Part shown: piece after piece, positions 4,830 to 63,832 of the stretch
Layout: each line of letters opens with the position of its first letter
Position numbering within the stretch: position 1 is the first letter of the stretch
Source of the DNA: a bacterium
GTDB lineage: Bacteria > Patescibacteriota > Patescibacteriia > Patescibacteriales > GWC2-42-12
NCBI GenBank assembly: GCA_030650415.1
Contig: JAUSEG010000025.1
Location: forward strand, 11,916-75,915
Direction of reading: 5' to 3'
Length of the DNA stretch: 64,000 nucleotides
Notes under the pieces: generated by a model
Seen by the model: the letters and a program-made list of their open reading frames with translations, nothing else
Databases searched by the model: none
What the model was told of the DNA's origin: nothing
Translations under genes and position numbers: made by a program

Positions 4830-5699
4830 TTATAATAATTTCCTTTTCTCCAAATTTTTTAAAAAATTACCGCCGGTAATTACTTTCTTCCCCGTTTTTC
4901 TTTCCAAGTCAATTCTCGCCACCTTCGCCACTCCGCCGCCTCTTTTTCCGGCAAGCTTATTTTCGCTCAGACCTTTGGCTTCTATGGTTTCCGCTATCTG
5001 CCTGGTGGACAGCTCGGCCAAGGCGGTAAAAATCAATTCCGCTTCGCTCATATGATCGCGTAAATTTTGCGTTTTCAATCCTTTCAATTTTTTATGCTCT
5101 TTAACGGTTACTTCCGACCATTCCTCGTGAATAATATTAGTCAGAATGGCAAATTCAGCTTTTTCTTTGATGCCGTTGCCGCTCCAATAATCAGTCAGCT
5201 TATTTCTTGTTTCCTGCCCCATCATCCGTTGCTGGATCCACTTTTCACTGCGGCCGTGCTTTTGCCAATTTTCCCGAGCGCGATTAAGAGATTTTTCCGG
5301 ATCAATCAGCTCCTGAATTCTTTCATAGCCTGCTTTAGCCAGCCAGAGCTTTATCGGTTCGGCTTTTGGACTGGGCACGGATTGAATTAATCGAAAAATA
5401 GTTTCGGGATTTGCTGCATCGGTTTCCCTCATTTTTCCATCTTCCGCAATCATTTTCAACTGGTTACATTTTGTAACCACTTCGCTTCCTTCCGCTTTCA
5501 AGCGATTTTTAAGCACTTTCCAGTAATTTCTGGCAACTTGATAATCCGGTTGATCAATTAAAGCCCGAACAATATCAATAACGGAAAAATACCAAACCTC
5601 CGTCTTTTCATCATACTGACGGCGGATTTTAAAATTTTCAAAAATTGCGATTTTATTGTCCATAGAACTCATTTTATCAAGCGGATTAGCTATTTCCAT
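4830..5699 (-). CDS. Bro-N domain / DinD-like (phage antirepressor-type) protein
   Basis: The N-terminus ([29 protein letters not shown]) resembles a Bro-N domain, and the remainder resembles DinD-family proteins. ATG at 5699 is preferred because a TATAAT box sits 6 nt upstream; the track start at 5714 is a TTG inside that box. Confidence 0.6.
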
Positions 5700-5750
5700 A
5701 ATGCTATTATACAAAAATCAGCAGGATAATACAACTTATTCTAAACAACG

Positions 5751-8566: not shown

Positions 8567-9178
8567 TCAGTCTAAAGAAAATTCTGTCAGCTTGGTTTTA
8601 ATTACTTTATCGGCAACCTCAAAACCGGGAAGAAATTCAACGCTTTCCTGATAATTTATGCCCTCAAAATATGCTAGCTGGCTTCTAAAAAGTTTTTCAT
8701 TAAACTCGCTTTTGAAAATTTCCAGGCCTTTGGCCGAAATTTGTCGGATATTAAAATGATCTTTAATGATAAAATACAAGTCAACATAATCTTTCCATTT
8801 GGCCCGCTGTCCTAAAGCATAGGCCTTCATGGCCGCCAGTGTAATGAGATTAGGCATTTTTATTTGATAACCGAAGCTTTCAGAATATTTAATTTCGTAT
8901 GGATAACGGAAAAAGGTTATTTTCACGCCTTTAATGATAAAGGTCAGCTCATCCAATTTATTGACAATTATTTTATCCGGCGGACTGAAAGCGGAAATTT
9001 TATTGAGCAAGCCCTGGTTACCGAACCTTTTTATGGAAAAAAGGTCAAAATCTATTGATCGGCGATGGCCCAGATGAAGAGCGATGGCCGTGCCGCCGAC
9101 CAAGCCGAAGTTTCGGGAAAACTTCGCGATCAGCGGCAATAATATATCCTGTTCATTAGTAAAAATTTCCTTATGCAT
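8567..9178 (-). CDS. AbiEii/AbiGii-type nucleotidyltransferase toxin (DUF1814-like)
   Basis: The N-terminal motif FGLVGGTAIALHLGHRRSIDFDLF resembles the AbiEii nucleotidyltransferase signature. The ORF is 203 aa. Confidence 0.6.
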   Translation of the reverse strand: MHKEIFTNEQDILLPLIAKFSRNFGLVGGTAIALHLGHRRSIDFDLFSIKRFGNQGLLNKISAFSPPDKIIVNKLDELTFIIKGVKITFFRYPYEIKYSESFGYQIKMPNLITLAAMKAYALGQRAKWKDYVDLYFIIKDHFNIRQISAKGLEIFKSEFNEKLFRSQLAYFEGINYQESVEFLPGFEVADKVIKTKLTEFSLD

Positions 9179-19265: not shown

Positions 19266-20531
19266 TTAAAAAGTTACGCTCTCCCCGGCCACAAAACCGG
19301 TGCTCCAACAGATCTGCAAATTATAGCCGCCGGTCGGCCCGTCCAAATCCAAAATTTCCCCGGCTAAAAATAAATTTTCATAAATTTTCGAACGCATGGT
19401 CCGCGAATCAACTTCCTTAATATCGACTCCGCCGGCCGTAACCATGGCCTTATTAAAACCTTTTAATTCTTTCGCTTCCAAAGTGAACTCTTTGAGGGCG
19501 CGAGCCAGCGCCTGGCGCTCGACTTTAGTAATATCGCTAACCTGCTTTTGCTCATTAACTCCTGATAATTCAATAATTGCTGGTAATAATTTCGGCTGCA
19601 CCAGGCCGGCTAAATAATTTTTTAACATTTTATTATGAGATTGATGAAAATCTTTTTGTAATTTTTCTTCAAACTTAGAGATCTCAATCTCCGGCTTAAA
19701 ATCAATCTTTAGAAATGTCGGTTCAAGCAAAAATTCGCCAACGTGTCCGCTTAAATCAATTATGGCCGGACCGCTTAAACCGTCGGCGGTAAAAATAATT
19801 TCTCCCGTTCGGCTCATAATTTTTTTATCATTCTGATAAACGCTTATGCCAATATTTTCTAAACTCAAACCTTCTAACTTTTTAACAATTTTTTCTTTAC
19901 CCCCACACCAAACTTGGTGTGGGGGTTTAACGACTATCGGCGTTAGGGCCGGCCGGGGCGCAATAATTTTGTGGCCTAAACTTTCCAGCCAACCGTAGGC
20001 CGAACCGGTTGAACCGGTCTCCGGATATGATTTTCCGCCGGTGGAAATTATAAAATTCCTGCCGAGAATTTCCTCGCCATTCGTCAAAATTATTTTTTCA
20101 ATTTTTTTGTCTTTAGCAACGATTTCTTTAACTTCCGCGCCAAGCCTGACTTCAACGCTATTTTTCTTTAAATACTTAACTAAGGCCTCTCTTATATCGC
20201 CGGCCTTATCGCTTAGAGGGAAAACTCGGCCGCGGTCTTCTTCTTTAGACTCTACTCCAAATTTACTGAAAAAATTTATAGAGCTCGCGACGCCGAATTT
20301 ACTGAAAGCGGAAAACAAAAATTTAAAATTCTTGCCATAAACGCCAATCGTCTCTTTTTTATCGGCTTGCAAATTGGTAAAATTGCAACGGCCATGACCG
20401 GTCGCAAGCAGTTTAGCTCCGAGCTGCTGATTTTTTTCGACTAAGAGCACGCGCGCACCCAGTTCGCCCGCTCGCCCAGCCGCCATCATACCGGCCGGCC
20501 CGCCACCAACTACTACTATGTCATAGATCAT
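19266..20531 (-). CDS. NAD(P)/FAD-dependent oxidoreductase, HI0933/BaiN-like family
   Basis: The N-terminus IVVVGGGPAGMMAA...GHGRCNFTN is typical of the family. The ORF contains the palindromic insert at 19899-19926. Confidence 0.8.
   Translation of the reverse strand: MIYDIVVVGGGPAGMMAAGRAGELGARVLLVEKNQQLGAKLLATGHGRCNFTNLQADKKETIGVYGKNFKFLFSAFSKFGVASSINFFSKFGVESKEEDRGRVFPLSDKAGDIREALVKYLKKNSVEVRLGAEVKEIVAKDKKIEKIILTNGEEILGRNFIISTGGKSYPETGSTGSAYGWLESLGHKIIAPRPALTPIVVKPPHQVWCGGKEKIVKKLEGLSLENIGISVYQNDKKIMSRTGEIIFTADGLSGPAIIDLSGHVGEFLLEPTFLKIDFKPEIEISKFEEKLQKDFHQSHNKMLKNYLAGLVQPKLLPAIIELSGVNEQKQVSDITKVERQALARALKEFTLEAKELKGFNKAMVTAGGVDIKEVDSRTMRSKIYENLFLAGEILDLDGPTGGYNLQICWSTGFVAGESVTF
19899..19926 (-). 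repeat. Family E palindrome inside the flavoprotein CDS
   Basis: ACCCCCACACCAA-AC-TTGGTGTGGGGGT. It is translated as PPHQVWCGG. Confidence 0.85.
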
Positions 20532-20561
20532 ATAAAGACGCCAAATAAAAAATTATAGTAT

Positions 20562-20712
20562 TTGCCAGCCAAAGATATTTATTTTGAGCGCATACAAAAT
20601 CGTCGCATTTTTTATTAAAATTACTCAGCTACCTAAGTCAATTATAATACAATTTTATTAAAAAATGCCCAGATTTTGTCTTAAGTGAAAAATAAATATC
20701 TTTGGCTGGCAA
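20562..20712 (+). repeat. Family X long hairpin
   Basis: The 24-bp arms are perfectly complementary: TTGCCAGCCAAAGATATTTATTTT / AAAATAAATATCTTTGGCTGGCAA. Conserved GAGCGCATAC lies on the 5' side and GTCTTAAGTGA on the 3' side, with an inner stem AAAATC-GTC-GCATTTTTTA. Confidence 0.8.
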
Positions 20713-20849
20713 GTTTCGCCTTGGGTAAAAAAACTAAAATCTTTGTTCGACAATACTAAACCATTATATTTGTCTAAACCTTACCACTTTTACGGCCAAA
20801 AAACAATTTTTAGCTTGCTTAAACGCCTAAAAATATTTATACTGACCTC

Positions 20850-21380
20850 ATGCAACTACCCTATAGAAAAGCTGGAAAATATACTCATCTAAAGCCCGAC
20901 CAACATCTGACCGAAGCGAAGTACAACGAGCTTAAAAATAAGCTGGATCGGCTTAAATTTAATCGTCCAGGCGCGGCCAACGAGGTTAAGCGGCTGGCTG
21001 AATTCGGCGATTTTTCGGAAAACGCCGAATACCAAATCGCTAAAGGTCGTCTCCGAGGCATAAACCAAAGAATTCTGGAAATTGAAGATCATTTAAGGCG
21101 CGCGGTTATAATTAAGCCCAACAAAAACAGCAAAACGGTTCAATTAGGCTCAAACGTCACCGTTCTAATTGCCGGTACACCCCCACACTTATTTCATAAG
21201 TGTGGGGGTAAAGAAAAAACCTATTTAATCTTGGGTTCGGCGGAAACCAACCCGGGCCGCGGCGTTATCTCCAGACGCTCGCCAATCGGTTCGGCTCTTA
21301 TCGGCAAGAAAATCGGTGACCAGATAAAAATTAAACTGGCTGACAGGGTGGTGGAATATAAAATTATAAAAATTGAATAA
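20850..21380 (+). CDS. greA: Transcription elongation factor GreA
   Basis: Coiled-coil N-terminal domain (DFSENAEYQIAKGRL) and a C-terminal domain (ISRRSPIGSALIGKKIGD). The ORF contains the palindromic insert at 21179-21209. Confidence 0.88.
   Translation: MQLPYRKAGKYTHLKPDQHLTEAKYNELKNKLDRLKFNRPGAANEVKRLAEFGDFSENAEYQIAKGRLRGINQRILEIEDHLRRAVIIKPNKNSKTVQLGSNVTVLIAGTPPHLFHKCGGKEKTYLILGSAETNPGRGVISRRSPIGSALIGKKIGDQIKIKLADRVVEYKIIKIE
21179..21209 (+). repeat. Family E palindrome inside the greA CDS
   Basis: ACCCCCACACTTAT-TTC-ATAAGTGTGGGGGT. It is translated as PPHLFHKCGG. Confidence 0.85.
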
Positions 21381-54459: not shown

Positions 54460-55506
54460 ATGCCAAAAACTAAGAAACCGAATCGCCGGCCGGACAACCC
54501 GGCCCATTCCGTGGCTTCTCTATTTAAACAGCTCGGACGGGAAGAAAAAATTAAAGTGCGGCTTGAGCCGGCCTGGCAACAGGTGGGAAAAATTACGCGC
54601 CCGGACGGCACCGCGACCTATTTTCGAGGCACTAATTTTGATTTAAACGGCCTGGGCGCCACGGAAATCGCGCGGGACAAGGGTTACGCCGCTTACTTTT
54701 TAAAACTGGCCGGCTTCAGGGTTATCCCGGGCAAAACCTTTTATTCGCCTAAATTTGCCAGACAGCTAAACAGCCGGAACGACCCGACCGCGGCTTATGA
54801 ATACGCGAAAAATAAAATCGGCTGGCCAGTAGTAGTTAAACCGAATAGCCTTTCACAAGGGCGGCTGGTTTGCGTGGCTGATGACAAACCAACTTTCGCG
54901 CAAGCGGCGCAGAAAATTTGCCGATTAGACCGAGTCTTTTTGGTTCAGCCTTTGCTTCTCGACCATGATTATCGGGTGGTAATTCTAGACGGCGAAGTTA
55001 TTTCCGCTTATGAAAGACTGCCGCTTTTCGTTATCGGCGACGGCATTGCCACCATCGACGAGCTGCTAAATAAAAAACAAAAAAAATACGAAGCGAGCGG
55101 CCGCGATACGACCATAGACAAGCGAGACTTTCGCATTGATCTAAGGCTTAAAAGGCATTATCTTAATCGCGCCTCCGTTTTAGCCAAAGGGCAAATTTTT
55201 AATTTACTGGACAATCGCAATTTATCAACCGGCGGCGAAGCCATTGATGCAACCGACGAAATTCACTCTTCGTATAAAAACCTGGCCGTTAAGATCGTCC
55301 GCGGCATGGGCCTTCGGTACTGCGGCGTTGATTTAATGGTGCAAAGCGACATCAAAAAACCCCTTGATCCTCGGACAAATAATTATTACGTTATAGAAAT
55401 AAATTCGGCTCCGGGCATTGATAATTACGCCAAATCGGGCGCCAAGCAGAAAAAAATTGTTAAAGAAATTTACCGGAAAATTTTAAAAAAATTAAACAAC
55501 CAATAA
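54460..55506 (+). CDS. ATP-grasp ligase (RimK/cyanophycin-synthetase-like)
   Basis: PVVVKPNSLSQGRLV, and the C-terminal YVIEINSAPGI pattern of ATP-grasp enzymes. The start is 1 nt after the methyltransferase stop. Confidence 0.6.
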   Translation: MPKTKKPNRRPDNPAHSVASLFKQLGREEKIKVRLEPAWQQVGKITRPDGTATYFRGTNFDLNGLGATEIARDKGYAAYFLKLAGFRVIPGKTFYSPKFARQLNSRNDPTAAYEYAKNKIGWPVVVKPNSLSQGRLVCVADDKPTFAQAAQKICRLDRVFLVQPLLLDHDYRVVILDGEVISAYERLPLFVIGDGIATIDELLNKKQKKYEASGRDTTIDKRDFRIDLRLKRHYLNRASVLAKGQIFNLLDNRNLSTGGEAIDATDEIHSSYKNLAVKIVRGMGLRYCGVDLMVQSDIKKPLDPRTNNYYVIEINSAPGIDNYAKSGAKQKKIVKEIYRKILKKLNNQ

Positions 55507-55637
55507 GGCGAGGAGGTTTATTTATCGCTTAGATAAAATTTGAGTATTTTTTCTTAAAATTATAATAAACTGGGTCTGGATAATTTTAAGAAAAAATAAT
55601 ACAATTTTATATGCGCTCTAAATAAACTTCCTCGCCT
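55506..55637 (-). repeat. Family X long hairpin (opposite orientation)
   Basis: The reverse complement reads AGGCGAGGAAGTTTATTTA GAGCGCATAT AAAATT GTA ... AAATTTT ATCTAAGCGA TAAATAAACCTCCTCGCCT. Confidence 0.75.
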
Positions 55638-55655
55638 TATTAATTTATCTGAAAA

Positions 55656-63677: not shown

Positions 63678-63832
63678 CTTCGGCTCTCGTCGGCTTCCGC
63701 CTCCTCGACCTAGCCACCGCCTCGCGGCGCTCCTCGCCTAATAGCTCGTCGCGCATCGCTCCGGCGTCCTCGTCCCATCTCTTCCAATCAAAAAAAGAAA
63801 AAGCTCCGCAGGGAGCTTTTTCTTTTTTTATG

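Follow-up and report, generated by a model that had tools for sequence, protein, structure and literature searches.

Two perfect GC-rich palindromes lie within protein-coding genes in a 64-kb stretch of DNA from a genome of the Patescibacteria, or candidate phyla radiation (CPR) (GenBank assembly GCA_030650415.1, contig JAUSEG010000025.1, positions 11,916 to 75,915; the whole stretch of 64,000 nucleotides is termed the window). One palindrome, at positions 19900-19925, is found in a flavoprotein gene, and the other, at 21180-21208, is found in greA. Comparison with uninterrupted homologues indicates that both are real insertions. [quoted passage not shown]

Insertions in a flavoprotein gene and in greA

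The open reading frames (ORFs) were identified by homology and Pfam, and their nearest named relatives are Patescibacteria, including several Falkowbacteria. The flavoprotein contains 10 additional amino acids, KPPHQVWCGG (equivalently PPHQVWCGGK), at about residues 201-211, while GreA contains 11, TPPHLFHKCGG, at about residues 109-119. An initial annotation, made from the sequence alone, had reported a palindrome inside each gene, translated as KPPHQVWCGGKEK and TPPHLFHKCGGKEK and followed on the coding strand by an identical TAAAGAAAAAA, and the sequence confirms each of these points. That annotation proposed alignment of orthologues, which was carried out with the 120 best homologues of each protein. 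The 10 flavoprotein codons are absent from 119 of 119 other homologues, which read ...VV|KEKIVK..., and the 11-codon GreA insert is absent from 116 of 120. GreA was also correctly described as longer at this spot than its Escherichia coli counterpart, and alignment with the latter (1GRJ) leaves a 9-residue gap at the insert site.

The two closest relatives, L213 and L214 (L-numbers are labels of loci collected in this analysis), share the divergent greA-flavoprotein arrangement and retain an empty flavoprotein site, ATA GTC GTT AAA GAA AAA ATT GTT, in which TAAA occurs once (GTC GT|TAAA|GAA AAA). The filled site of the window reads ATA GTC GTT AAA (26-bp palindrome) T AAA GAA AAA ATT GTT, and its flanks are identical to those of the relatives. 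The flavoprotein gene has therefore gained 30 bp, consisting of the 26-bp core and a second TAAA. In greA, the gain amounts to 33 bp, made up of a 29-bp core and 4 further bp, with TACA as the left repeat and TAAA as the right repeat. In both genes, the K-E-K codons 3' of the palindrome are ancestral host sequence. TAAAGAAAAAA had been taken for a 3' extension of the element, but the empty sites and the target logo (described below) show that its TAAA is the target-site duplication and that GAAAAAA belongs to the host.

The greA-flavoprotein spacer measures 318 nt in the window versus 116 nt in both L213 and L214, so the locus has gained a third insertion. The spacer contains a 151-bp element (20562-20712) with perfect 24-bp terminal inverted repeats (TTGCCAGCCAAAGATATTTATTTT). 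No second copy of this element was found in the window or the collected loci.

The cores of the two palindromes differ in length (26 versus 29 bp) and have distinct inner stems, such that the palindrome initially regarded as the same in both genes is common only in the outer 9 bp of each arm. Two matches to CCCCCACAC-N(2-20)-GTGTGGGGG are present in the window, compared with none in 100 shuffles, and the 20-mer GTGTGGGGGTAAAGAAAAAA occurs twice, compared with a mean of 0.01 in the chance expectation. Both palindromes are the longest and most GC-rich perfect hairpins of the 64 kb, with predicted RNA folds of -24.8 and -23.8 kcal/mol (z-scores of -5.2 and -4.7). No further copy, intact or decayed, emerged from a fuzzy search of the window. 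An Rfam scan of the window returned only two tRNAs at the gathering score, and the palindromes gave chance-level matches to miRNA hairpins. Both hairpins are located in the middle of a coding sequence (CDS), followed by an A-run on the sense strand and preceded by a T-run on the antisense strand. An intrinsic (rho-independent) terminator was rejected for the window copies, as neither strand shows a hairpin and then a U-tract.

In the AlphaFold model of GreA, strands 102-108 and 121-128 of the C-terminal domain are joined by a loop that contains residues 110-119, whose predicted local distance difference test (pLDDT) scores are <50; homologues without the insert have a variable turn at this site. 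The flavoprotein model places the insert after strand 199-202 and before helix 212-218, as coil of low confidence. Structure prediction, also recommended by the initial annotation, places both inserts in predicted surface loops of low-pLDDT coil.

Table 1. Host genes, palindrome cores, and flanking repeats in the window
Feature	Coordinates	Strand	Sequence or description
Host gene 1: HI0933-like NAD(P)/FAD-dependent oxidoreductase (flavoprotein)	19266..20531	-	421 aa versus 411 aa in homologues
Host gene 2: greA	20850..21380	+	176 aa versus typically 165 aa in homologues
Palindrome stretch 1	19899-19926		Plus strand reads ACCCCCACACCAAACTTGGTGTGGGGGT; in minus-strand 421-aa ORF 19266..20531
Palindrome stretch 2	21179-21209		Plus strand reads ACCCCCACACTTATTTCATAAGTGTGGGGGT; in plus-strand 176-aa greA ORF 20850..21380
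26-bp core, main CCAA/TTGG subfamily	19900..19925		CCCCCACACCAA-AC-TTGGTGTGGGGG on plus strand; in flavoprotein CDS
29-bp core, TTAT/ATAA subfamily	21180..21208		CCCCCACAC-TTAT-TTC-ATAA-GTGTGGGGG; in greA
Target-site duplication, left copy, flavoprotein	19896..19899		TTTA on plus strand = TAAA on gene strand
Target-site duplication, right copy, flavoprotein	19926..19929		TTTA on plus strand = TAAA on gene strand
greA left flank	21176..21179		TACA; imperfect duplication copy, one mismatch to TAAA
greA right flank	21209..21212		TAAA duplication; also gives last base of Gly codon and Lys codon of ancestral G-K-E-K

Three other GreA proteins have an insert at exactly the same position (GKPPRQIWRGGKQK and GKPPHQAWR(G/E)(D/G)KQK). 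In the greA gene of L001, GGC AAA and T AAA enclose a perfect palindrome, CCCCCACGCCAAATTTGGCGTGGGGG, and the greA genes of L002 to L004 contain a decayed palindrome with the reading frame kept. The decayed copies, which come from three different sequencing runs, have lost both Cys and palindromy (PPHQAWRGD). The perfect copy of L001 and the decayed copies of L002 to L004 constitute an age series in greA, and decay in which Cys and palindromy are lost but the frame is kept suits a tolerated passenger better than a functional motif.

In a neighbor-joining tree calculated with the insert columns removed, the four GreA carriers form three lineages, the nearest relatives of each lack the insert, and the common ancestor of the carriers spans 80 of the 120 sequences. 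In addition, the window greA copy belongs to the 29-bp subfamily and the other greA carriers to the 26-bp subfamily. Judged from these sequences, a history in which greA was hit independently three times at one GG|TAAA codon is more parsimonious than many precise losses. Target preference and loop tolerance probably both contribute to this recurrence, and three hits at one codon would provide a natural experiment on target choice versus selection.

A dispersed palindrome family with a 4-bp target duplication

One genome per species was scanned with the pattern CCCCCACRCCAA-N(0-4)-TTGGYGTGGGGG, with near-perfect arms demanded and flanks left free, and the exact pattern was found at at least 119 genome loci. 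Among the matches listed, 92 of these at least 119 loci are labeled CPR (Falkow-, Sacchari-, Nealson-, Giovannoni-, Moran-, Kerfeld-, Wolfe-, Lipton-, Berkel-, Doudna-, Harrison-, and Paceibacteria and generic Patescibacteria/Parcubacteria), and the non-CPR loci comprise 6 from Omnitrophota, 4 from Planctomycetota, and others from scattered metagenome-assembled genomes (MAGs). The genome loci listed also include one Bacillus match without a flanking repeat, which is probably a chance terminator. Many genomes are represented, and the Falkowbacteria MAG MFFV01 has at least 15 loci. A metagenome scan, which excluded the CCAA subfamily and in which AAA/TAAA flanks were imposed beforehand, yielded 51 more loci, all on low-GC contigs. 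These copies are 26 to 35 bp long and have nearly always perfectly matched arms, with the outer 9 bp in common and inner stems of TTAT/ATAA, TAAT/ATTA, TCAT/ATGA, TTAA, TCAC/GTGA, and AAAA/TTTT. The window greA core groups with two of the copies from the metagenome scan, L196 (TTATGGAATAA) and L164 (TTATATAA).

The genome-wide pattern search suggested in the initial annotation thus produced at least 170 further independent loci, from many studies and assemblers, and the two window copies are not the coincidence that a lack of further copies would have implied. The terminal 9 bp (CCCCCACAC/GTGTGGGGG) are conserved across about 170 loci, whereas the inner stem varies and is still complementary. 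Core lengths are 25 to 35 bp with 0 to 4 unpaired central bases. Among the 111 copies sampled with unconstrained flanks, 27-bp (51 copies) and 28-bp (50 copies) cores predominate, and 26-bp cores are rare (8 copies). The specific palindrome pattern had no match in viral contigs, which gives no evidence for a phage vector. A looser pattern (ACCCCCACRC..GYGTGGGGGT) had 38 matches in viral contigs and was rejected as too unspecific, as these are ordinary GC-rich terminators, mostly of GC-rich phages. Four loci (L056, L066, L075, and L135) come from a MAG labeled Syntrophobacter (CAZNJP01), with contigs of 36 to 40% GC that are unexpected for this label, and their palindrome lies inside a larger repeated unit, gggcattgttaaaggt-core-tataccccttcatccc. 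This case may reflect mislabeling or another composite element.

Duplication of the target was assessed in 111 unique copies from a flank-agnostic scan. Flanks repeat directly and exactly at 4 bp in 36 of the 111 copies, compared with 3 copies at 3 bp and 2 at 5 bp, and permuted right flanks gave a mean of 5.7 exact 4-bp pairs and a maximum of 15 in 10,000 trials. The commonest duplicated tetranucleotide is TAAA or TTTA, and flanks of this type form 18 direct pairs versus 2 inverted pairs. Sixteen exact pairs fall outside T[A/T][A/T]A: six of the TNNA type (TTGA three times, TTCA twice, and TCAA), five that are otherwise AT rich (TATT and AATA twice each and TTTG), and five containing GC (CCAG twice, CCTG, CATG, and CAAG). 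The duplication of such varied tetranucleotides rules out a fixed tetranucleotide borne by the element and favors staggered target cleavage. The target logo, based on 61 copies (T42 A44 A45 A52), gives a reconstructed target of (A)(G/A)|TAAA, and no conserved base was detected beyond the 4-bp duplication in these copies.

Some copies also lie nested inside others. Falkowbacteria contain a second MITE of roughly 55 bp (TCCAAACACCTTC...GAAGGTGTATGGA) that likewise harbors nested copies; its flanks are TAAA/TAAA, and its terminal repeat is related. This second MITE is carried by L051, L055, L058, L069, L079, L094 to L099, and others (Falkowbacteria MFFV01/PFAT01), and the palindrome is nested in it at a duplicated TATT. 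A longer form contains a second, decayed palindrome flanked by TAAA, and this composite is itself multicopy.

The relationship of insertions to genes was analyzed for 148 unique near-perfect copies, with the empty site restored for each before ORFs were checked. Only 10 of the 148 are in long ORFs; about 93% are outside, and most are intergenic. In 9 of the 10 in-ORF copies, with cores of 26 or 29 bp, the number of bases added is divisible by 3, compared with 21 of 138 (15%) elsewhere (Fisher P = 1.7e-6). These nine copies keep the ORF open, with no stop codon in the frame used, and the single exception is upstream of the Pfam domain of its ORF. Other host genes encode a class-I release factor, QueA, PCMT, a PIF1-like helicase, and a DHH/RecJ-like protein, in which the palindrome is read in another frame, as PHTKFGVG instead of PPHQxWCGG. 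In-gene copies are therefore those let through by purifying selection, and the multiple-of-3 rule indicates that they are translated rather than removed. The common orientation and frame of the window copies had been presented as features of the element, but a palindrome has no orientation and the frame differs among genes. The view of a palindromic element that inserts into ORFs without destroying them is right for the in-gene copies, which behave in this respect like those of Rickettsia palindromic elements (RPEs), but such copies are the exception, the large majority being outside long ORFs.

Proposed mechanism and alternative explanations

The palindrome inserts with duplication of a 4-bp target and a strong preference for (A)(G/A)|TAAA, and its movement would be catalyzed in trans by a transposase making 4-bp staggered cuts. 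This enzyme would probably be of the DDE type and recognize the 9-bp termini, and arm complementarity may be maintained by a hairpin or cruciform form or by correction of one arm against the other. Within genes, copies survive only when the core and the 4 duplicated bases together have a length divisible by 3 and the frame read is free of stops. Such palindromes are apparently translated as loop extensions of 10 or 11 residues, and the encoded peptides are probably neutral passengers and not functional modules.

Several observations weigh against a MITE-like element. No transposase Pfam match was found among the 59 window ORFs, no protein family recurs beside copies in all-against-all clustering of 893 ORFs or among within-genome paralogues, and 1.25 Mb of collected loci contained no kilobase-spaced pair of solo arms and no autonomous partner. 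MITEs usually measure roughly 50 to 500 bp and have internal sequence, and 25 to 35 bp is far below this size. The 4-bp repeat is perfect in only about one-third of copies, and the imperfect pairs are not random: among L043 to L161, TAAA/TGAA is seen six times and TACA/TAAA three times, the latter also in the window greA copy. Complementarity of the inner stem across subfamilies is unexpected under purely sequence-based recognition of termini and hints at a hairpin-dependent step. Furthermore, sampling was biased, as near-perfect arms were preset in the genome scan and AAA/TAAA flanks in the metagenome scan, and the data are nearly all from MAGs, in which some non-CPR labels may be binning errors.

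A bolder proposal, possible but rather doubtful, is that the palindrome represents the smallest target-duplicating transposable element described from prokaryotes, a unit of 25 to 35 bp with two abutted repeats of 9 to 13 bp that is present in many CPR lineages, Omnitrophota, and Planctomycetota. It would be moved by an enzyme cutting TAAA with a 4-nt stagger, would pass through a hairpin-dependent step, and would be a recurrent source of loops in essential proteins. In that case, piggyBac/IS1380-like chemistry may operate, with overhangs from the donor pairing to the target, which would account for the duplications that recur with a single mismatch.

Movement as single-stranded hairpin DNA by an HUH/Y1 enzyme is unlikely. 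Such movement, with TAAA as the recognized tetranucleotide, would follow the manner of repetitive extragenic palindromic (REP) sequences and their REP-associated tyrosine transposases (RAYTs) or of palindrome-associated transposable elements (PATEs) of the IS200/IS605 type. It would suit the near-perfect hairpin, the inner stem that covaries between subfamilies, the preferred flanking TAAA, and a palindrome size that resembles that of REPs. However, HUH elements are not known to produce a target duplication, whereas the single TAAA of the empty site shows that the target was duplicated, and TAAA/TTTA pairs are overwhelmingly direct rather than inverted. Flanks also match when they vary (TTGA, TTCA, CCAG, CATG, CAAG, CCTG, and TCAA), which led to rejection of an HUH-type mechanism as the main model, and Pfam detected no Y1 transposase among the window ORFs. 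It is more improbable still that recombination and selection by the host have spread functional sequences, whether operators, paired DNA uptake signals, or RNA hairpins that terminate or stabilize transcripts. This view is favored by the high stability of the hairpins. In addition, many TTTA-oriented intergenic copies precede T-rich DNA and could act as transcription terminators, and in phage contigs, looser forms of the stem are terminators of the ordinary kind. Nevertheless, target duplications and clean filled and empty sites are signatures of insertion, copies are nested in one another, and the window copies lack a U-tract after the hairpin on either strand. Intergenic copies of a MITE-like element could still be used secondarily as terminators.

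Two further explanations concern only the copies within genes, and both are very improbable. The inserted peptides (PPHQxWCGG and others) might be a functional module, such as a Cys/His metal site, encoded by DNA that is palindromic only incidentally; they do contain His and Cys, and decayed greA copies are still in frame. Yet almost all orthologues lack the peptides, other proteins read the same DNA in another frame, the bulk of copies are noncoding, decayed copies have no Cys, and the inserts are low-confidence loops. Alternatively, strong hairpins within coding sequence might be excised from the RNA or skipped by the ribosome, as is the case for the GC-rich 'byp' inserts of Magnusiomyces mitochondria. 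Skipping would not require a length divisible by 3, whereas in-ORF copies nearly all show it and have no stop codon in the frame used. Finally, chance or an assembly or sequencing artifact can be given almost no credence: although the window holds only two copies, no shuffle yields even one, independent loci from different studies and assemblers are numerous, and the decayed in-frame copies were recovered in separate sequencing runs.

Relation to known elements and other features of the window

RPEs are about 100 to 150 bp long, confined to Rickettsia, and mostly located inside ORFs (PMC10969869). They insert in frame into unrelated housekeeping genes and are translated as extra surface segments of proteins that survive (PMC10969869). 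The CPR palindrome is similar in that a palindromic repeat has been inserted in frame into unrelated housekeeping genes without destroying the protein, but it differs in its size, its unrelated sequence, its location mainly outside long ORFs, and its sharp 4-bp TAAA duplication. Membership of the RPEs was therefore rejected on size, sequence, host, and the share of copies in genes.

Prokaryotic MITEs (such as Correia, RUP, and Nezha) share with the CPR palindrome inverted repeats, a target-site duplication, the lack of coding capacity, dispersed multiple copies, filled and empty sites, and nesting. The palindrome has the terminal inverted repeats, fixed-length duplication, and multicopy noncoding nature of a MITE, but neither the usual size nor the internal sequence; unlike MITEs, its arms are complementary beyond the conserved 9 bp and it has no known parent insertion sequence. 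REPs and bacterial interspersed mosaic elements (BIMEs), which are associated with RAYTs, are likewise GC-rich palindromes of about 20 to 40 nt that are mostly extragenic and present in many copies. REPs are not known to make a target duplication and have a conserved 5' GTAG and a linked RAYT gene, whereas the CPR palindrome has a real 4-bp duplication, is flanked by TAAA rather than GTAG, and has no Y1 transposase match in the window. The true duplication also distinguishes it from IS200/IS605-type elements.

The mobile GC clusters of yeast mitochondria and 'byp' elements are GC-rich palindromes of about 30 to 50 nt in an AT-rich genome, with AT-rich targets and short duplications. They resemble the CPR palindrome as short GC-rich palindromes that occupy AT-rich targets and occasionally coding sequence, but they are organellar and unrelated in sequence, and byps are bypassed, whereas CPR copies are apparently translated, as judged from the multiple-of-3 rule. 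IS1380 and piggyBac elements generate a 4-bp AT-rich target duplication and have termini that start with a C-run. The palindrome resembles them only in its duplication and C-rich ends, as its target is TAAA and not TTAA and no such transposase was found. IS1380 transposases are distant prokaryotic relatives of piggyBac (PMC10140906).

Full-text literature searched by sequence and topic contained no description of a palindromic element from CPR, in line with the initial annotation, but coverage was incomplete and an earlier description is possible. To our knowledge, few mobile elements have been reported from the small, gene-dense genomes of CPR/Patescibacteria. If the palindromes are a MITE-like element, they would provide a datable insertion and loss marker for strain-level and horizontal-transfer studies and would explain a portion of the short lineage-specific insertions seen among CPR proteins (here, six host genes of named function). 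They would also push down the lower size limit of target-duplicating transposable elements, and they raise the question of the transposase responsible for a 4-nt staggered cut at TAAA and for recognition of CCCCCACAC hairpin ends. For annotation, such inserts should not be read as functional motifs.

Other structures in the window include a hairpin, ACCCCCTTTAACAAAGGGGGT, at 1477-1497, directly upstream of nusA, with ends that resemble the palindrome family and an unremarkable fold. It was rejected as a third family member because it has no 4-bp repeat and folds weakly, and it may be a terminator or leader structure. The convergent RimK-like and YchF genes are separated by an inverted repeat at 55502-55641 (62-nt arms, 85% complementary, with a 16-nt spacer), which may represent either a further MITE or a long bidirectional terminator. 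A BRO-N domain protein (4830-5714) and an AbiEii-like toxin fragment (8567-9178) suggest phage- or defense-related remnants, and the rest of the window is housekeeping. A perfect hairpin with an 18-bp stem at 63790-63829, AAAAAAAGAAAAAGCTCC-GCAG-GGAGCTTTTTCTTTTTTT, adjoins tRNA-Asp and looks like a bidirectional terminator.

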